Of a stretch of DNA of 44,320 nt, positions 10,771 through 41,060 are shown piece after piece (position 1 is the stretch's first letter; each line of letters opens with the position of its first letter). The position numbers were made by a program, and so were the translations under genes. Source of the DNA: Escherichia phage vB_EcoA_fTuEco01; sequence record MZ031013.1; one strand, given 5' to 3'. The notes under the pieces were generated by a model. It had not been told where the DNA came from. It ran no database searches and worked only from the letters and a program-made list of their open reading frames with translations.

Positions 10771-13303
10771 TTGGAAGAAGGAGGCAAAAGGCCGTATCCT
10801 AGTAATGGATGCGGAGGCTAAAGGTCTGCTTGATGCCATCCGATATGGACACCGCGAAGATGTGCATATCATTTGCTGCATGGACTTGCTTACTACTGAG
10901 GAGTTCCTCTTCTTTGACCCATATGAGATGCGTGACCCTGAAGCAAGGGAGCGCCTGAAGGAATGGGAAGGGCATCAAGATGGTGACTTGGTTGATGGTG
11001 TTAACTTCCTGAAGCACTGTGAAGCTATCGTGTCACAGAACTTCCTAGGATATGACGGTCTTCTCTTTGAGAAAGCATTCCCTGCTATCTGGAAAGGTTT
11101 TAACTATACCGAGAGGCGAGGCAAGGGCAGACTCCGCGCTGACCTGTGTCCTGTGCGAGTCATGGACACGCTGGTGATGAGTCGCCTGTTAAACCCCGAT
11201 AGGCGCCTCCCTCCGCAAGCATACGCCAAAGGTATGGGTAACGTCGCCCCTCACTCAATTGAGGCGCACGGCATTCGTATAGGCCGTTATAAGCCGGAGA
11301 ACGAGGATTGGTCTAAACTAACTGACCACATGGTACATCGTGTACGCGAGGACGTGGCGATAGGCCGTGACCTATTCCTCTGGCTATTTAACGGAGAATG
11401 GACGGAGCACAAACGCCGTGGCGTGAATAAACGCACTGGCCTAGGTATTGAGACAGCCTTCCACATGGAGTCCATTGTGGCGCTGGAGATGAGCCGTCAG
11501 GCCGAGCGTGGATTCCGTCTGGATATAGATAAAGCATTAGCACGATGCGAGGAATTGGACGCTAAGATTGATGAGACAGTCGCAGCGTTCCGTCCGCACA
11601 TGCCTATGCGTATCAAGTCTAAACCTTTTAAACCGGAAGAAAAGAATGAAGTATGCCAACGCGCAAATGAGTATGGAGCTAGCAACAATATACCTACTGT
11701 TCTTGACCCCTCTCACTTTCTTCACGCAGAGAGACGAGGGGATCGCAAGACAGTATGGAGTGTCACTACTAAGTCTGGTGATTGGTCGGCTAGCGTCAAG
11801 AAAGACTTTCCTCACCTTAGAGGAAACCGTAATGACACGCCAAGCATCAAGTGGATTGGCGCTTACTCGCCTGTTACTTTCGAAGAAATTCCCTTGGGTA
11901 ACAGGGATACAGTTAAGCAAGTGCTCTATGATTATGGATGGAAAGGTGTTGAATTTAACGATACCGAGCAAGCGCATCTCGATGAGCATGGCGTATTACC
12001 CAAGCCTTGGAGTGGGAAGATAAATGAAAAGTCCCTTACTTTATGGCAAGAGAGAGCCGCACGTGAAGGTAAAACAGTCCCTGATTGGTGCTTGGGTATC
12101 GCTGCATGGTACATACTCGTATCCCGTCGTGGTCAGATCCTCAACCGTGGTGACGTTGAAGCCTTCGACCAGAAGGGGGTGTGGCCTTCGCAAGCTGGTA
12201 TACGAAAGTGTCGCGGCCTTGTACCTGTAGCATTTAACAAGGAGTTAGGAATCAATGCGCAGCAATACTACGAAAGGTACGGATGCTGGCCTACGTCAGA
12301 CAAGGATGACGGAGAATGGCGTGTGCCAGCTATTGCTATTAGTATTGGAACTTCTACGTTCCGTATGCGTCATCGTAACGTGGTTAATATTCCTGCCCGT
12401 GGTTTGTATCCTTTACGTGATTTATTCATAGCCGGTAAAGGTAAGCTAATCCTTGGTTGTGATGGTGCTGGTCTTGAACTACGTGTCCTGTCTCACTTCA
12501 TGAATGACCCTGAATATCAAGATATTGTACTGCATGGTGACATTCACACCCATAATCAAATGAAGGCTGGTCTTCCTAAGCGTGACATGGCGAAGACATT
12601 TATATATGCCTTCCTATATGGGTCTGGTATAGCTAACCTTGCAGCAGTATGTGGTGTTACTGAGGAAGAAATGGAGGAAGTTGTGGCAAGATTTGAGGTT
12701 GAACTACCATCTCTTGCACGTCTTCGTGAGAATGTTATCGCACAAGGTAACAAGTTTGGCTACCTACAAGCACCTGATGGTCATTGGGGTCGCATCCGTA
12801 TGTCTGGTGGTGAACTTAAAGAGCACACTATGCTTAACGTACTACTACAGATGACTGGTTCTCTGTGTATGAAATACGCATTGGTCAGAGCGTTTGCAGT
12901 GATGCGCAAGGAAGGTGTGGCCTTAGATAGCATGGGAAACCCTTGCGGTATAGCTAACGTGCACGATGAAATCCAGATGGAAGTCCCTGAAGATGAGGTC
13001 TTGTATCTCAACTACGACTTGCCTTTCACCTTAGAAGGGTTCGAAACAGAGAAGGCTGCTGTGAAAGCAGTGTTCGATGCAGAGGAGAAACGTGTTCATG
13101 TAGATTCTGAAGGACGTATGTGGTCTGCTGCAAATCTCGTTAGCGTTGATGCTGATGCTGGTGTACTTCATTGCCAGCGTCGCTATCACCGTGCAGGGCA
13201 TATCATTGCCGACGCAATGACTTGGGCGGGTCAGTATCTGAAGATGCGTTGTCCGATGGCAGGTGAGTATAAGATTGGTGCAAGTTGGAAGGAAACACAC
13301 TGA
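10757..13303 (+). CDS. DNA polymerase, family A (T7 gene 5-like), about 848 aa
   Basis: 3'-5' exonuclease motif (ILVMDAEAKG), pol motif A (DGAGLELRVLSHF), motif B (KTFIYAFLYGSG) and motif C (VHDEIQMEV). Start chosen at ATG 10757 (MKITDW); the track starts upstream at 10730. Confidence 0.93.
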   Translation: MKITDWKKEAKGRILVMDAEAKGLLDAIRYGHREDVHIICCMDLLTTEEFLFFDPYEMRDPEARERLKEWEGHQDGDLVDGVNFLKHCEAIVSQNFLGYDGLLFEKAFPAIWKGFNYTERRGKGRLRADLCPVRVMDTLVMSRLLNPDRRLPPQAYAKGMGNVAPHSIEAHGIRIGRYKPENEDWSKLTDHMVHRVREDVAIGRDLFLWLFNGEWTEHKRRGVNKRTGLGIETAFHMESIVALEMSRQAERGFRLDIDKALARCEELDAKIDETVAAFRPHMPMRIKSKPFKPEEKNEVCQRANEYGASNNIPTVLDPSHFLHAERRGDRKTVWSVTTKSGDWSASVKKDFPHLRGNRNDTPSIKWIGAYSPVTFEEIPLGNRDTVKQVLYDYGWKGVEFNDTEQAHLDEHGVLPKPWSGKINEKSLTLWQERAAREGKTVPDWCLGIAAWYILVSRRGQILNRGDVEAFDQKGVWPSQAGIRKCRGLVPVAFNKELGINAQQYYERYGCWPTSDKDDGEWRVPAIAISIGTSTFRMRHRNVVNIPARGLYPLRDLFIAGKGKLILGCDGAGLELRVLSHFMNDPEYQDIVLHGDIHTHNQMKAGLPKRDMAKTFIYAFLYGSGIANLAAVCGVTEEEMEEVVARFEVELPSLARLRENVIAQGNKFGYLQAPDGHWGRIRMSGGELKEHTMLNVLLQMTGSLCMKYALVRAFAVMRKEGVALDSMGNPCGIANVHDEIQMEVPEDEVLYLNYDLPFTLEGFETEKAAVKAVFDAEEKRVHVDSEGRMWSAANLVSVDADAGVLHCQRRYHRAGHIIADAMTWAGQYLKMRCPMAGEYKIGASWKETH

Positions 13304-13420
13304 TGGACAGGTTTGATATTGTTTGCCTATTCTCCACCTTCTTTCTTATATTCCTTATGCTTGCTTGCTATGGAAGTATGCGATTAGATATACCTGATGA
13401 AGAGGAGGGTTACGATTGAT
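13304..13420 (+). CDS. Hypothetical hydrophobic peptide, 38 aa
   Basis: TGATG overlap with the polymerase stop; FSTFFLIFLMLACY transmembrane-like segment. Confidence 0.3.
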
Positions 13421-36240: not shown

Positions 36241-36435
36241 ATGATTAACTCCGAACTGGTAGATAGTGGTGTGAAGCTGGCGCCACCTGCATTAGTATCA
36301 GGTGGGTACTTCCTCGGTATCAGTTGGGATAATTGGGTGTTAATAGCAACATTCATTTATACCGTGTTGCAAATTGGAGACTGGTTTTATACCAAGATTA
36401 AACTATGGAGGAGGAGCCGTGAGCGTACACAATAA
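36241..36435 (+). CDS. Holin-like small membrane protein, 64 aa
   Basis: AAGGAGGTG RBS; hydrophobic WVLIATFIYTVLQIGDWFY segment and highly basic C-terminus KIKLWRRSRERTQ; position equivalent to T7 gene 17.5. Confidence 0.5.
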   Translation: MINSELVDSGVKLAPPALVSGGYFLGISWDNWVLIATFIYTVLQIGDWFYTKIKLWRRSRERTQ

Positions 36436-36718
36436 ACATGCAGCTACGGAAGACGAGGTTGGCATTCTACATGGTGCTATTACCAAAATCTTTAATAAGA
36501 AAGCACAGGCAATACTGGACACTATAGAAGAAGACCCAGATGCAGCACTGCATTTAGTCTCTGGTAAAGACATTGGAGCTATGTGTAAGTGGGTTCTTGA
36601 TAATGGTATTACCGCTACACCCGCTGCACAGCAGGAGGAGTCCAAGCTATCTAAGCGCCTCAAGGCTATCCGAGAGGCATCAAGTGGCAAGATTATTCAA
36701 TTCACTAAGGAGGATTGA
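36419..36718 (+). CDS. Putative terminase small subunit, 99 aa
   Basis: GTG start 5 nt after GGAGGAGG; lies immediately upstream of, and is translationally coupled (TGATG) to, the large terminase gene. Confidence 0.45.
   Translation: MSVHNKHAATEDEVGILHGAITKIFNKKAQAILDTIEEDPDAALHLVSGKDIGAMCKWVLDNGITATPAAQQEESKLSKRLKAIREASSGKIIQFTKED
36510..36530 (+). promoter_or_regulatory. Phage RNAP promoter embedded in the putative small terminase gene
   Basis: CAATACTGGACACTATAGAAG; in frame it encodes ILDTIEE. Confidence 0.6.
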
Positions 36719-38616
36719 TGGCTAAGGCAAGAGAATCACAAGCGGAGGCTCTTGCCAGATGGGAGATGCTACAGGAGTTACAGCAGACCTTTCCTTACAC
36801 AGCGGAAGGTTTGCTTCTCTTTGCAGACACAGTTATTCATAACTTAATTGCAGGCAACCCTCATCTGATTCGTATGCAGGCTGATATCTTGAAGTTCCTA
36901 TTCTACGGACACAAGTATCGCCTCATCGAAGCGCCTCGTGGTATCGCTAAGACAACACTATCAGCAATCTATACAGTATTCCGTATCATTCATGAACCGC
37001 ATAAGCGTATCATGGTTGTATCCCAAAACGCCAAGCGAGCAGAGGAAATCGCAGGTTGGGTAGTTAAAATCTTCCGGGGCTTAGACTTTCTTGAGTTTAT
37101 GCTGCCGGATATCTACGCTGGGGACCGTGCATCCGTTAAGGCGTTTGAGATTCATTACACCCTACGTGGTAGTGATAAGTCTCCTTCTGTATCCTGTTAC
37201 TCAATCGAAGCAGGTATGCAGGGTGCTCGTGCTGATATTATTCTAGCGGATGACGTAGAGTCGATGCAGAATGCTCGTACGGCAGCGGGCCGTGCCTTGC
37301 TTGAGGAACTGACTAAGGAGTTTGAATCTATCAACCAGTTTGGGGACATCATTTACCTTGGTACACCTCAGAACGTAAACTCTATCTATAACAACCTACC
37401 TGCTCGTGGTTACTCTGTTCGTATCTGGACTGCGCGTTACCCTTCAGTAGAGCAAGAGCAATGTTATGGCGACTTCCTTGCACCTATGATTGTTCAAGAT
37501 ATGAAGGACAACCCAGCACTTCGCTCAGGGTACGGGTTGGATGGTAATAGTGGTGCACCTTGTGCCCCTGAAATGTATGATGATGAAGTCCTGATTGAGA
37601 AGGAAATCTCTCAGGGTGCTGCTAAGTTCCAGCTTCAGTTCATGCTTAACACTCGCATGATGGATGCTGACAGATACCCATTACGCCTGAACAATCTAAT
37701 CTTCACCTCGTTTGGTACAGAGGAAGTCCCTGTGATGCCTACGTGGAGTAATGATTCCATAAACATCATTGGTGATGCACCTAAGTATGGTAACAAGCCT
37801 ACGGATTTCATGTACAGACCTGTAGCTCGCCCATACGAATGGGGTGCTGTCTCCCGCAAGATTATGTATATTGACCCTGCGGGTGGTGGTAAGAACGGAG
37901 ATGAGACGGGTGTAGCCATCGTATTCCTGCACGGCACATTCATTTATGTGTATCAGTGCTTTGGTGTACCTGGCGGATACCGAGAGTCGTCCCTGAATCG
38001 CATTGTGCAGGCCGCAAAGCAGGCGGGTGTTAAAGAGGTATTCATTGAGAAGAACTTTGGTCATGGCGCGTTTGAGGCGGTAATTAAGCCGTACTTTGAA
38101 CGAGAGTGGCCTGTAACTCTGGAAGAGGATTACGCCACCGGACAGAAAGAGTTGCGTATCATTGAGACGCTGGAGCCGCTCATGGCAGCCCATAGGCTTA
38201 TCTTCAATGCAGAGATGGTGAAGTCAGACTTTGAGTCGGTACAGCACTATCCGCTTGAACTACGCATGTCCTACAGTCTTTTCAATCAAATGTCGAACAT
38301 AACGATTGAGAAGAACAGCCTCCGGCACGATGACCGCCTAGACGCCCTGTATGGCGCTATACGGCAATTAACTTCTCAGATAGACTATGACGAGGTTACA
38401 CGGATTAATCGCCTCAGAGCGCAGGAGATGCGCGATTACATCCATGCTATGAATACACCTCATCTACGCAGGGCAATGCTATATGGAGATTACGGTACTG
38501 AGCGAAGAGTGACCAACACTTCCGTAGCGATGCAGCAGCGAGTTTACGGGCAGAACTACCGAAATAAATCGGCAAGCAGAAATACACTTTCTGCAAGGAT
38601 TTCAAGGACTTATTAA
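36718..38616 (+). CDS. Terminase large subunit (T7 gene 19-like), 632 aa
   Basis: Walker A-like APRGIAKTT, a Walker B-like hydrophobic stretch followed by DD (ADIILADDVES), and a C-terminal nuclease region; AAGGAGG RBS. Confidence 0.9.
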   Translation: MAKARESQAEALARWEMLQELQQTFPYTAEGLLLFADTVIHNLIAGNPHLIRMQADILKFLFYGHKYRLIEAPRGIAKTTLSAIYTVFRIIHEPHKRIMVVSQNAKRAEEIAGWVVKIFRGLDFLEFMLPDIYAGDRASVKAFEIHYTLRGSDKSPSVSCYSIEAGMQGARADIILADDVESMQNARTAAGRALLEELTKEFESINQFGDIIYLGTPQNVNSIYNNLPARGYSVRIWTARYPSVEQEQCYGDFLAPMIVQDMKDNPALRSGYGLDGNSGAPCAPEMYDDEVLIEKEISQGAAKFQLQFMLNTRMMDADRYPLRLNNLIFTSFGTEEVPVMPTWSNDSINIIGDAPKYGNKPTDFMYRPVARPYEWGAVSRKIMYIDPAGGGKNGDETGVAIVFLHGTFIYVYQCFGVPGGYRESSLNRIVQAAKQAGVKEVFIEKNFGHGAFEAVIKPYFEREWPVTLEEDYATGQKELRIIETLEPLMAAHRLIFNAEMVKSDFESVQHYPLELRMSYSLFNQMSNITIEKNSLRHDDRLDALYGAIRQLTSQIDYDEVTRINRLRAQEMRDYIHAMNTPHLRRAMLYGDYGTERRVTNTSVAMQQRVYGQNYRNKSASRNTLSARISRTY

Positions 38617-38636
38617 TTACTGGACACTATAGAAGG
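38614..38636 (+). promoter_or_regulatory. Phage RNAP promoter (AATTACTGGACACTATAGAAGG)
   Basis: Consensus match overlapping the terminase stop. Confidence 0.75.
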
Positions 38637-38649
38637 AAGGCCCAGATAA

Positions 38650-38702: not shown

Positions 38703-38709
38703 TTAGTAT

Positions 38710-38729
38710 GGGTGTACTCCTGTACACCC
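38710..38729 (+). promoter_or_regulatory. Perfect hairpin GGGTGTAC-tcct-GTACACCC in the leader of the paralogue cluster
   Basis: 8-bp perfect stem with a 4-nt loop, read directly from the sequence. Confidence 0.45.
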
Positions 38730-38773
38730 TATTCCTTACTACCTTACTATATTTACATAATAGGAGAGAGACA

Positions 38774-39049
38774 ATGGCTAATGATTATAGTAGTCAACCA
38801 TTAACAGGTAAGTCTAAGAGAAAGCAGGTACAACCTGTAAGTGAAGAACTAATGCTTCCGGTAATCCCAAAAGAGGCAGCTAGTAAGAAAAGCAATGTTA
38901 TTAATGATGCCACCAAATCAGGTAAACAGAAAGGGGCCATGGTATGCCTTGAAGTGGACGGTGCATGGCAGATTGCTATCGCTGTTGATGGCAAAGAAGA
39001 CTCAGAGTGGAAGTTAGTGACAAGGGAACCCACTGTTACCCCAGTTTAA
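38774..39049 (+). CDS. Hypothetical protein P1, 91 aa, first of three tandem paralogues
   Basis: TAGGAGAGAG RBS; shares the ...SGKQ.GAMV...IA.A..G.E...W... core with the next two ORFs. Confidence 0.6.
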   Translation: MANDYSSQPLTGKSKRKQVQPVSEELMLPVIPKEAASKKSNVINDATKSGKQKGAMVCLEVDGAWQIAIAVDGKEDSEWKLVTREPTVTPV

Positions 39050-39067: not shown

Positions 39068-39355
39068 ATGGCTAAATATGGTACTACAGGTTCTGTTACG
39101 GGTCAGGCTTTTCGAGTGAAAGCAGTACAAACTATTGCAACGGCAATTCCTATGCCTGTTGTTGCTGAAGAAGACCTTAAGAAGAAAGATCATCCTATCA
39201 ACATCAAATATTTATCAGGTAAACAGAGAGGTGCAATGGTTGTTATTTCGAGAGCGGACACAACCGTGCATATTGCTGTTGCACGTGGTAGTGAGCCCAC
39301 CGACGTTTGGGATGTAACTGCTATGGACCCCATTGCTGTTACACCAGGGGAGTGA
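39068..39355 (+). CDS. Hypothetical protein P2, 95 aa, second tandem paralogue
   Basis: GAAGGAGGA RBS; KYLSGKQRGAMVVISRADTTVHIAVARGSEPTDVWDV aligns with P1 and P3. Confidence 0.6.
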   Translation: MAKYGTTGSVTGQAFRVKAVQTIATAIPMPVVAEEDLKKKDHPINIKYLSGKQRGAMVVISRADTTVHIAVARGSEPTDVWDVTAMDPIAVTPGE

Positions 39356-39362
39356 TATTATC

Positions 39363-40040
39363 GTGTTAGGTATTACAGGACAACGAAGTGTAAGTCATCA
39401 AGCTAAGGTTGCCACGGAAGTGGCTCCTATCGTTGATATCTCAGATGTGTCTGACGTTAACTCTTATCTAAACCAAAAGTACCTATCAGGCAAACAGGAA
39501 GGGTATACTGTTATGACTAAGAAAGGTTCACGTTATTCATTGTATGCTGCAACAGGTTCTAAGCCAGAAGATAAGTGGTTGCCTTTAGAGCAAGCAACCC
39601 TACCTGATTCGAGTGCATTAGAGCTAATTGACACCATCGATGTTGAAGTTGCAAGTGCAAGCGACACAGTAGAGGTTAATGTAACCAAAGAGAGGACTGT
39701 GTGCATCCAGACTCCTATGAAGGACTTAGCAGGTGATACAGTTTACCGGCAAGAATTGACTGCCAACATTAACCTTACCATTAATGAAAACGGAAGCCCA
39801 AGCGATACGGTTAAATTAAACATATCAATTCCTAATTTGCCAGGAACATCTAGTGGGTCTTACTATACAGTTGACAATGTGCTGTGTACTTCTTTTGGAG
39901 ACGACAGTCCTGTTATTGCCAATATAGATGTCGATAAGGCTACCACTAACTTGATTGCTGTTACACTTCGTAAAGAGACGGCAACAGATATTAGGCTGTC
40001 TCTTGTAATTAGGTGGTCAATGCCAGTGGAGGTTGTATAA
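39363..40040 (+). CDS. Hypothetical protein P3, about 225 aa, third paralogue with a C-terminal extension carrying internal DTVEVNVT / DTVKLNIS repeats
   Basis: N-terminal 90 aa align with P1/P2 (LGITGQ...KYLSGKQEGYTVM...AATGSKPEDKW). GTG start at 39363 is inferred; the track starts at an upstream TTG. Confidence 0.55.
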   Translation: MLGITGQRSVSHQAKVATEVAPIVDISDVSDVNSYLNQKYLSGKQEGYTVMTKKGSRYSLYAATGSKPEDKWLPLEQATLPDSSALELIDTIDVEVASASDTVEVNVTKERTVCIQTPMKDLAGDTVYRQELTANINLTINENGSPSDTVKLNISIPNLPGTSSGSYYTVDNVLCTSFGDDSPVIANIDVDKATTNLIAVTLRKETATDIRLSLVIRWSMPVEVV

Positions 40041-40384
40041 TGCTTAACAAATACTTCAAGCGTAAAGAGCTTGCTTGCCGTTGTGGGTGCGGTACATCCA
40101 CTGTTGATGCTGAATTACTACAGGTAGTCACAGATGTGCGTGAGCACTTTGGTTCCCCTGTAGTTATCACTTCTGGGCATCGCTGTGCTAAGCACAATGC
40201 TAATGTAGGAGGAGCTAAGAACTCCATGCATCTTACTGGTAAGGCTGCTGACATTAAGGTACGAGGCATCTTACCTTCTGATGTACATAAGTATCTTACT
40301 GATAAGTACCAAGGCAAGTATGGTATTGGTAAGTATACCTCCTTTACTCATATTGATGTACGTGACGGGTGTGCACGATGGTAG
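40040..40384 (+). CDS. Endolysin, peptidase M15-type zinc peptidoglycan peptidase, 114 aa
   Basis: SGHRCAKHNANVGGAKNSMHLTGKAADI matches the M15 motifs (S-x-H-R ... G-G-x-x-x-S-x-H ... A-x-D). TAATG overlap; GGAGGT RBS. Confidence 0.7.
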   Translation: MLNKYFKRKELACRCGCGTSTVDAELLQVVTDVREHFGSPVVITSGHRCAKHNANVGGAKNSMHLTGKAADIKVRGILPSDVHKYLTDKYQGKYGIGKYTSFTHIDVRDGCARW

Positions 40385-40492
40385 GTTGTGTTGCATGGTG
40401 TGAACGCATGGTTGCTAAGGCTTCAGAGGAAGGCAACTATGAAGATTGGCAGAACTACTCAACTTTATTAGCTCAATGGAAAGGGAGATGCA

Positions 40493-40642
40493 ATGAAAAA
40501 GCTGTTCAAATCTAAGAAGGTTGTAGGTGCACTAGTTGCATTGGCAATTGCTCTTGTTTCTGTAGGTCTTGGTGTAGACCTTGGCTCTGGCACGGAATCC
40601 TCTGTGACAGATGTGGTCTGCCAAGTGATCACCTGTGAATAA
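40493..40642 (+). CDS. Small membrane protein, 49 aa, in the lysis cassette (holin/antiholin or lysis regulator candidate)
   Basis: AAGGGAGA RBS; basic N-terminus MKKLFKSKK followed by the hydrophobic VVGALVALAIALVSVGLGV. Under 60 aa, so absent from the track. Confidence 0.4.
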   Translation: MKKLFKSKKVVGALVALAIALVSVGLGVDLGSGTESSVTDVVCQVITCE

Positions 40643-40856
40643 GTTTCTAGAAGTGCTGGCAGGTCTTATTGGCCTGCTTGTCTCTGCTAAGAAGAAACAA
40701 GAAGAGAAGGAGGCACAAAGTGAAGCGAATCATGCTAGCGACAACCCTGCTGATTGGTTCGCTGATCATTTCAGGGTGTCAGACGGCGTTACCAGAGAAT
40801 CCAAAGGTGAAGCCTCTGAAGCCGACGCTTACGGCAGTCTACGAGGTGGACGATAA
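40635..40856 (+). CDS. Putative i-spanin (Rz-like), 73 aa
   Basis: N-terminal transmembrane segment FLEVLAGLIGLLVSA followed by a charged periplasmic region; contains the start of the overlapping lipoprotein ORF. Confidence 0.5.
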   Translation: MNKFLEVLAGLIGLLVSAKKKQEEKEAQSEANHASDNPADWFADHFRVSDGVTRESKGEASEADAYGSLRGGR

Positions 40857-40929
40857 AGTCTGCTTCAGTAAGCCTGACGCTACAAAATTAGGTCTGTACA
40901 TTCTCTCGCTAGAACGCGGGTATAATTAA
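40732..40929 (+). CDS. Putative o-spanin (Rz1-like lipoprotein), 65 aa, overlapping the i-spanin in the +1 frame
   Basis: Signal peptide MLATTLLIGSLIISGC with lipobox LIISG|C, followed by a Pro-rich mature region (PENPKVKPLKPT). Confidence 0.6.
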   Translation: MLATTLLIGSLIISGCQTALPENPKVKPLKPTLTAVYEVDDKVCFSKPDATKLGLYILSLERGYN

Positions 40930-40968
40930 TACATAGTTTTATGTATCAGTGTCTTACGATTTACTGGA

Positions 40969-40989
40969 CACTATAGAAGAGATAAGATA
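40969..40989 (+). promoter_or_regulatory. Phage RNAP promoter upstream of the tailspike genes
   Basis: ATTTACTGGACACTATAGAAG, perfect consensus. Confidence 0.8.
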
Positions 40990-41060
40990 GTGCCGTTCTT
41001 TTGAGCGGCCTATTACTAGCCAATCTTCATAGGGAGGATTGGGAAGTAATAGGAGAGTAT

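Follow-up and report, generated by a model that had tools for sequence, protein, structure and literature searches.

Which protein partners the outer-membrane lipoprotein at the end of the lysis cassette of Escherichia phage vB_EcoA_fTuEco01 (MZ031013.1), and which of the small membrane proteins encoded around it acts as the holin? We examined this question in a 44,320-nucleotide (nt) stretch of the phage, here called the window, starting from a first-pass annotation that had described a cassette at 40040-40929 with an endolysin, two small open reading frames (ORFs) and an overlapping spanin pair, and a holin-like gene 4 kb upstream. We call the small genes ORF45, ORF49 and ORF73 after their lengths in amino acids (aa). 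In the explanation that we favour as a whole, with a probability of about 0.68, this is a K1E/SP6-like late lysis cassette in which the holin would be a T7 gp17.5-type protein, ORF73 and the lipoprotein would form a short spanin as its inner-membrane (i-spanin) and outer-membrane (o-spanin) subunits, and ORF49 would be an accessory of the holin step. Every ORF that had been described is present with the ends given for it:

40040..40384, plus strand: endolysin, 114 aa, ATG start and TAG stop
40378..40515, plus strand: ORF45, 45 aa, ATG start and TAA stop
40493..40642, plus strand: ORF49, 49 aa, ATG start and TAA stop
40635..40856, plus strand: ORF73, 73 aa, GTG start and TAA stop
40720..40929, plus strand: o-spanin lipoprotein, 69 aa, GTG start and TAA stop
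36241..36435, plus strand: T7 gp17.5-family holin, 64 aa, ATG start and TAA stop

The five cassette genes occupy all three frames and are joined by overlapping stops and starts, with ORF49 and the o-spanin gene having ribosome-binding sites of their own. As a coding test, we compared mean pairwise diversity at codon positions 1, 2 and 3, in each gene's own frame, across 11 aligned genomes ranging from 99% to ~67% identity. Diversity was 0.18/0.14/0.475 in the endolysin gene, 0.33/0.28/0.50 in the segment read only as ORF45 (40385-40492), 0.22/0.16/0.54 in that read only as ORF49 (40516-40634), 0.285/0.126/0.427 in that read only as ORF73 (40643-40719) and 0.17/0.04/0.39 in that read only as the o-spanin (40857-40926). 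Within the overlap of the last two genes, the ORF73 frame is dominant in the first half (40720-40790, the o-spanin signal peptide) and the o-spanin frame in the second (40791-40856, the mature lipoprotein). This pattern across diverged relatives indicates purifying selection on the protein products of all four small genes, which are thus more than chance ORFs. Their description as unannotated was mistaken, as several GenBank and RefSeq relatives carry annotations, albeit under conflicting names.

The same comparison bears on the idea that ORF73 is not translated at all, its conservation arising merely from the overlaid o-spanin signal peptide and ribosome-binding site. ORF73 does begin with GTG behind no recognizable Shine–Dalgarno sequence, it is missing from the K1E, K1-5 and LL11 annotations, and its conserved K-E-A-Q codons coincide with the o-spanin AAGGAGG. 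Yet codon periodicity in its own frame extends over 26 non-overlapping codons, its frame dominates even across the o-spanin signal-peptide codons, the homologue in PP99-like phages starts with ATG at the same position (a TAATG junction), and the family comprises 245 clusters with a conserved NPxxWFxxHF motif. We regard an untranslated ORF73 as scarcely credible.

We assign 40720..40929 as the o-spanin gene, encoding the predicted precursor of an outer-membrane lipoprotein. Its product matches phrog_8971 ‘Rz-like spanin’ (E 9.2e-39) and carries a signal peptide and lipobox, MKRIMLATTLLIGSLIISG/CQT (IISG/C), with Gln and no Asp at +2, followed by a mature part of 50 aa that has KPTLTAVYEVDDKVCFSKPDATKLGLYILSLERGYN as its conserved C-terminus. 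Relative to ORF73 the gene is in the +1 frame, with its start 85 nt inside and its stop 73 nt beyond that of ORF73; an AAGGAGG Shine–Dalgarno sequence inside ORF73 ends 6 nt before its GTG, and SP6 has an ATG start at the same position.

The gene that encloses this start, ORF73, matches phrog_9219, a family of unknown function (E 1.7e-34). Constraint falls on its hydrophobic N-terminal helix, on KKKxEEKEAQ and on the DNPADWFADHFRV motif, and its acidic tail is free to vary. A profile search of 1.84 billion representatives at E<=1e-3 delimited the family at the above 245 clusters, nearly all of 58-90 aa. Longer matches of 157, 132 and 103 aa, considered as canonical i-spanin relatives, were rejected as read-through or mis-called ORFs, and a search of the PDB with the family profile returned nothing meaningful. 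ORF73, ORF49 and the o-spanin have no match in Pfam.

We then asked what accompanies ORF73-family genes, recovering distant loci by contig look-ups and by two degenerate DNA patterns for NPxxWFxxHF. In 58 of 58 distinct family members examined, a lipoprotein ORF starts inside the gene in the +1 frame (one is truncated and one runs off its contig end), and the encoded lipoproteins have a common C-terminal domain, ..KPTL..(C)..A..LG.YIL.LER... The first-pass reading of the 73-aa ORF as an i-spanin, with an o-spanin starting inside it in the +1 frame and running past its stop, is backed by this arrangement in every member examined. The enzymes adjoining these pairs are of M15, Amidase_3 or C92-like type. 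Outside Molineuxvirinae, the gene directly 5' of the pair is usually a coupled 55-77-aa two-helix holin-like protein (phrog_34682) and sometimes the endolysin, and in most lineages the pair is present without ORF49. Conversely, ORF49 is present and the pair missing in Klebsiella phage pKP-M186, over its whole genome, and in the cassette loci of phD2B and POP72 and a 5-kb locus of Vibrio phage ICP3. As the pair and ORF49 each occur alone, the co-inherited unit is the ORF73 family together with its lipoprotein, and ORF49 is a separable module. From these associations we favour ORF73, not ORF49, as the partner of the lipoprotein.

Two observations on distant loci stand apart from this comparison. 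In PP99-like IMG/VR contigs (L032/L033, ~1500-2500), a protein of 185-217 aa (phrog_3108, unknown function) takes the place of the M15 endolysin, and an extra 104-aa gene (phrog_38226) lies between the ORF45-like and ORF49-like genes. In IMG/VR contig L094 (5585-7084), the N-terminal part of a large terminase, ...RLEKNPEEWFKYHF..., resembles the motif of the ORF73 family weakly (small search, E 1e-4), probably by coincidence.

Is ORF73 built like an i-spanin? Its highest 19-residue Kyte–Doolittle mean (KD19) is 1.25, over an uncharged run of 12 aa, against 2.63 and 20 aa for lambda Rz; T7 gp18.5, an accepted i-spanin, scores the same as ORF73 (1.35, 12 aa), and hydropathy therefore cannot decide whether ORF73 has a transmembrane helix. 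AlphaFold2, run with 70 sequences, predicted helices at 2-36 and 38-46 followed by a disordered tail (predicted local distance difference test score, 70). There is also a natural fusion, P0268 (95 aa; TARA marine contig L050, 329-616), in which an ORF49-like N-tail, transmembrane helix and DLG loop are joined to an ORF73 domain. This protein follows an M15-like endolysin, carries the +1 lipoprotein gene and has K/R residues N-terminal of its helix in a textbook i-spanin layout, which argues that the ORF73 domain works in the periplasm; it is a single example, from one marine contig seen in two samples. The periplasm is ~20-25 nm wide. On a rough estimate, the ~55 residues of ORF73 beyond its anchor and the 50 of the mature lipoprotein would span it only if largely extended, and the 21 of ORF49 could barely reach across. 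We consider ORF73 an only partly typical, short i-spanin candidate, with periplasmic topology and o-spanin binding as predictions.

The fusion invites a three-part arrangement, in which ORF49 would be a detachable membrane anchor and ORF73 a periplasmic adaptor, together making one i-spanin that binds the o-spanin. Besides P0268, this would suit the translational coupling of the two genes, in which the ORF73 GTG overlaps the ORF49 stop (GTGAATAA) as the ATG does in the TAATG of PP99-like phages, and the weak hydrophobicity of the ORF73 helix taken alone. We nonetheless think it decidedly unlikely: most ORF73-family pairs adjoin a complete holin-like protein with two transmembrane domains (two-TMD) or an endolysin and not an ORF49-like gene, P0268 is the one fusion, and ORF73 would in any case have to cross the membrane by a route of its own. 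A fusion of ORF49 and ORF73 by frameshifting was considered and rejected, as the offset of ORF73 from the frame of ORF49 is +1 in the window but +2 in PP99-like phages; with such differing offsets the junction looks like one of termination and reinitiation and not a conserved slip.

Published assignments point in two directions. The supplement of Kongari 2018 (PMC6139136) lists the same lipoprotein as the o-spanin, with K1-5, K1E and SP6 entered as a separated pair of a 49-aa i-spanin and an o-spanin 77 nt downstream, whereas UAB_Phi78 is entered as an overlapped pair with a 69-aa i-spanin, which is an ORF73 homologue; spreadsheet comments on the 49-aa i-spanin read ‘too small?’ and ‘too short’. 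Our cassette has the same genes in the same order as SP6 (gp46-gp48), K1-5 and K1E (gp43-gp45), at 74-99% nucleotide identity and with the same o-spanin assignment. It differs from those tables in the i-spanin, for which we favour ORF73 over the 49-aa protein in the whole group.

In the separated reading that Kongari 2018 and the GenBank record of LL11 adopt, the i-spanin would be ORF49, with the lipoprotein gene 77 nt beyond it, and ORF73 would have some other role or none. ORF49 offers this reading a strong anchor of the type II, N-in and C-out kind expected of an i-spanin, with a KD19 of 2.64 that equals the transmembrane helix of lambda Rz, and two periplasmic cysteines alongside the conserved periplasmic cysteine of the o-spanin. 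K1-5, K1E, SP6 and LL11, and the SP6 record XGX93925.1, are entered in this way, and the exact positions of T7 18.5 and 18.7 are taken in ICP3 by an ORF49-like gene and a lipoprotein gene. Set against this, the periplasmic part of ORF49 is ~21 residues long, a size flagged by the tables' own comments, and the UAB_Phi78 entry in the same tables uses the ORF73 homologue. The supposed 77-nt gap is a conserved coding gene, and the o-spanin family travels with an ORF73-family gene in all 58 cases, mostly without an ORF49-like gene. ORF49 persists in pKP-M186, in whose whole genome no lipoprotein or spanin gene was found, and the ICP3 lipoprotein belongs to a different family (phrog_10167). These co-inheritance data support the UAB_Phi78 entry and argue against those for K1-5, K1E and SP6, and we judge ORF49 an improbable i-spanin.

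Naming in public records is no more consistent. RefSeq and Pharokka-style records call ORF49 a ‘holin’, and SP6 records (AAP48787.2, XGX93925.1 and NP_853607.1) name its homologue both ‘holin’ and, in XGX93925.1, ‘i-spanin’; one SP6 record gives the ORF73 homologue, trimmed to 65 aa, as ‘o-spanin’ although it lacks a lipobox.

As the first-pass annotation had proposed, 40040..40384 encodes what we assign as a soluble zinc peptidase of family M15, matching Pfam PF08291 Peptidase_M15_3 over its full length (E 4.3e-33, 114.1 bits, cut-off 23.2; residues 4-106 to profile positions 1-108) and phrog_894 ‘endolysin’ (E 2.7e-44). Residues 62-71, SMHLTGKAAD, carry the SxHxxGxAxD motif, which is the zinc-binding motif of M15 (LAS-type) peptidases. 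The protein has a maximum KD19 of 0.71 and neither a hydrophobic segment nor a signal or signal-anchor-release (SAR) sequence, and lacking a hydrophobic segment it would need a holin.

The best-supported holin is the product of 36241..36435, for which hole formation is predicted from membership of the T7 gp17.5 family. It matches Pfam PF10746 Phage_holin_2_2 (E 5.5e-27, 93.7 bits, cut-off 25.4) and phrog_920 ‘holin’ (E 1.5e-27), and has a single hydrophobic segment and a basic C-terminal tail (KIKLWRRSRERTQ). The gene lies after a tail gene and directly 5' of the small terminase subunit (PF11123), an order identical to that around T7 gene 17.5. The first-pass annotation was thus correct that a holin-like gene is present here, but in calling it a second candidate it undervalued the gene that alone gives a curated holin-family match above threshold and occupies the T7 gene 17.5 position. 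Next to it, the longest small-terminase ORF (36374-36718, from the TTG at 36374) would overlap the holin gene by 62 nt; its Pfam match begins only at residue 24, and the true start probably lies downstream of the holin stop.

How, then, does ORF49 relate to holins? The gene has an AAGGGAG ribosome-binding site and a start 23 nt ahead of the ORF45 stop, and it encodes five lysines, a 19-aa transmembrane helix and a tail of ~21 aa ending CQVITCE (a conserved CxxxxC). It matches phrog_4712 ‘holin’ (E 3e-27), a family to which three two-TMD holin-like proteins from the same slot elsewhere also give weak matches (E 0.002-0.007). With hhalign, ORF49 residues 2-43 align to residues 7-47 of the two-TMD holin-like proteins of phrog_34682 (probability 93%, E 3.1e-7), a part that comprises their N-tail, first transmembrane helix and loop, and BLASTP against one two-TMD protein (E 6e-4) shows the common loop D-[IL]-G-x-[DG]-T-E...D-[IV]-V. 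ORF49 also takes the same slot as these proteins, directly 5' of and coupled to an ORF73-family gene. Unlike them, it ends before a second helix and basic C-tail, in its own short, acidic and predicted periplasmic tail with the conserved CxxxxC. ORF49 accordingly looks like a one-helix derivative of the cassette holin.

Such a derivative could still be the working holin for the adjacent endolysin, as the PHROG and RefSeq labels imply, with the gp17.5-like gene as an auxiliary or timing factor. The phrog_4712 label, the identical RefSeq name, the holin slot by the endolysin and the homology to two-TMD holin-like proteins all speak for this. Yet its two-TMD relatives have a second transmembrane helix and a charged cytoplasmic C-tail, the latter a feature expected of a holin, and ORF49 has neither; its ‘holin’ label traced to no experiment in the literature searched, and a bona fide T7-family holin is encoded in the window and in the relatives checked (ICP3 and pKP-M186). 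We hold this reading to be unlikely, though a contender. ORF49 also has neither the long periplasmic domain nor the consistent pairing with an o-spanin expected of an i-spanin. Since a T7-type holin is encoded as well, ORF49 would act in an accessory or regulatory capacity at the holin step, most likely as an accessory holin or holin regulator and not as a spanin partner. The first-pass statement that holin and antiholin or regulator are not to be told apart from sequence holds for ORF49 and ORF45, except that sequence does relate ORF49 to holin-like proteins.

Several loci carry ORF49-like genes in other company. In Klebsiella phage pKP-M186-2.1 (L047) the endolysin, ORF45 and ORF49 are retained, but neither an ORF73-family gene nor a plausible lipoprotein gene is present, and the phage appears to be a naturally spanin-less relative. 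A second family of small lipoproteins (C-x-V-x-I-V-x-D-S-x-x-V..SSY; phrog_10167, unknown function) accompanies ORF49-like genes in ICP3 (L046, 2767-3105), phD2B (L016, 1185-1301) and POP72 (L017, ~1170-1286); in phD2B and POP72 this lipoprotein gene lies 5' of the endolysin gene and the mature part of the product is only ~21 aa.

Besides the ICP3 arrangement and the entries that make ORF49 the i-spanin (Kongari 2018; LL11 in GenBank), other points weigh against the explanation that we favour. ORF73 has ~55 residues beyond its anchor, near the lower limit of the lengths in the Kongari 2018 tables, with no coiled-coil-sized domain; its C-terminal tail, the region where Rz binds Rz1 in lambda, is its least constrained part; and the KKK cluster after the hydrophobic helix leaves the positive-inside orientation ambiguous. 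The N-terminal helices of distant family members are mostly amphipathic, with regularly spaced charges and a median uncharged run of 7 aa. The match of ORF49 to holin-like proteins is largely one transmembrane segment, the composition of which may inflate scores, and the two-TMD proteins of phrog_34682 are holins by annotation only. No functional or lysis study of the cassette genes was found in the literature searched, in which the KBNP1315 paper tested just a gp17.5-like holin and a different, secreted endolysin, and the CSP1 paper proved unrelated to these lysis genes.

The amphipathic helices in particular allow another view of phrog_9219, as a distinct and widespread class of very short lipoprotein partners that are not classical i-spanins. 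Such proteins might leave through the lesion made by the holin, or a holin-type helix next to them might hold them, and ORF49 would then be a holin remnant kept as an anchor, as P0268 suggests. We find this rather doubtful, and continue with ORF73 and the lipoprotein as a short spanin and ORF49 as a holin-step accessory.

Transcription of the cassette fits a K1E/SP6-like scheme. The window holds 8 matches to the K1E/SP6-type phage promoter where 0 are expected, two of which flank the lysis genes:

38615..38637, plus strand: K1E/SP6-type phage RNA polymerase promoter with 3 mismatches to the consensus, opening the late unit that holds the cassette
40959..40981, plus strand: the next phage promoter, with 0 mismatches (perfect consensus), marking where the lysis unit gives way to the tailspike genes

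A consensus scan of the window gave no further phage promoter between these two, and the cassette, bracketed by them, thus sits in a single late transcription unit. From what is shown here, which genes are present and coding, the families they belong to, how they are arranged and what accompanies them across phages, we infer every biochemical step of lysis as follows. The promoter at 38615 would yield one mRNA carrying three paralogous genes and those for the endolysin, ORF45, ORF49, ORF73 and the o-spanin. A holin of T7 gp17.5 type, whose gene lies 4 kb upstream beside the terminase genes, would, by its family membership, permeabilize the inner membrane, and the soluble M15 peptidase, having no export signal, would pass the holin lesion and cut the peptidoglycan. 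ORF73, presumably anchored at the inner membrane through its hydrophobic N-terminal helix, would together with the outer-membrane lipoprotein constitute a short two-component overlapped spanin that destroys the outer membrane, as architecture and the family-wide association suggest. ORF49 and ORF45 may modulate or assist lysis, ORF49 at the holin or membrane step.

The three paralogues upstream of the endolysin under the same promoter lie in tandem at 38708-39049, 39068-39355 and ~39333-40040 and have a common N-terminal domain, phrog_2725. The PHROG label ‘acetyl-CoA acetyltransferase’ looks dubious given their lengths of 95-235 aa, and the one paralogue scanned against Pfam, the longest, had no match.

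Known systems resemble this cassette in part. The T7 endolysin is the gp3.5 amidase, whereas the enzyme here is an M15 peptidase; the holin is a true member of the T7 gp17.5 family in the same genome position, and the hydrophobicity of the ORF73 anchor is the same as that of T7 gp18.5. T7 18.5 and 18.7 lie between the terminase subunits, whereas the spanin genes here follow the terminase and endolysin genes, and derivation of ORF73 and the o-spanin as diverged T7 gp18.5 and gp18.7 was rejected, there being no sequence similarity. As in lambda Rz/Rz1 and P2 LysB/LysC, an N-terminal hydrophobic anchor and a charged helical region are combined with a +1 lipoprotein gene that runs past the stop of the outer gene (the ‘overlapped’ class of Kongari 2018, file 5), and the pair comes last in the cassette. 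Unlike in those systems, with which there is no sequence similarity, ORF73 has 73 aa against 153 for Rz, lacks a long coiled coil, has a weakly hydrophobic anchor and carries its conserved element, NPxxWFxxHF, in the middle of the protein and not at the C-terminus.

ORF45, whose ATG overlaps the endolysin stop (ATGGTAG), is the remaining small gene. It matches phrog_1312 ‘unknown function’ (E 1.3e-17) and has no hydrophobic segment, an invariant CxxxC (C-x-x-W-C), a second helix-like stretch and the core G-N-Y-x-D-W-x-N-Y..LL..W. It is kept in SP6-, K1E-, Proteus-, Klebsiella- and PP99-like phages, including the PP99 group with its different neighbouring enzyme, and is absent from the phD2B, POP72 and ICP3 loci examined. 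Membership of DUF3012 was considered and rejected, as only 2 of 12 homologues match and the best E of 0.047 is below the cut-off. Its features suggest a conserved cytoplasmic, non-membrane microprotein, to which we assign no function. In LL11 (L005, ~655-670, equivalent to window positions 40378-40400), the conserved Trp codon of C-x-x-W-C reads TGA, leaving a C-terminal ORF of 33 aa; either this is a sequencing error or the N-terminal motif of ORF45 is dispensable.

The lineage that carries this cassette can be placed by the region 39900-41050, which has 99.4% nucleotide identity to Escherichia phage Phi100-A, 85-97% to many Vectrevirus genomes (K1E, K1-5, LL11 and mutPK1A2), ~74% to SP6 and ~67% to Proteus Acadevirus phages. 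These identities place the source phage in Vectrevirus, where its close relatives are classified, as a K1E/SP6-like podophage. Elsewhere in the window, an ORF of 38 aa at 13303-13419 (MDRFDIVCLFSTFFLIFLMLACYGS...), picked out by a regular-expression scan alone, combines a hydrophobic segment with a lipobox-like LAC.

The cassette itself is ordinary and already catalogued in a known phage lineage. What the comparison adds is an argument on the partner of the lipoprotein, as far as sequence allows, and the link from ORF49 to holin-like proteins. It matters for annotation, as public records name the same three small proteins ‘holin’, ‘i-spanin’, ‘o-spanin’, ‘gp48’ and ‘hypothetical’, incompatibly, and automated pipelines spread these labels; a phrog_9219 gene with a +1 Rz1-like lipoprotein gene, the combination found in 58 of 58 members examined, offers a simple annotation rule for a widespread short spanin pair. 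The ORF73 pair also bears on the minimum length of a spanin, and since K1E-like phages are used against K1 E. coli, knowing their lysis-control genes may be of some practical use.

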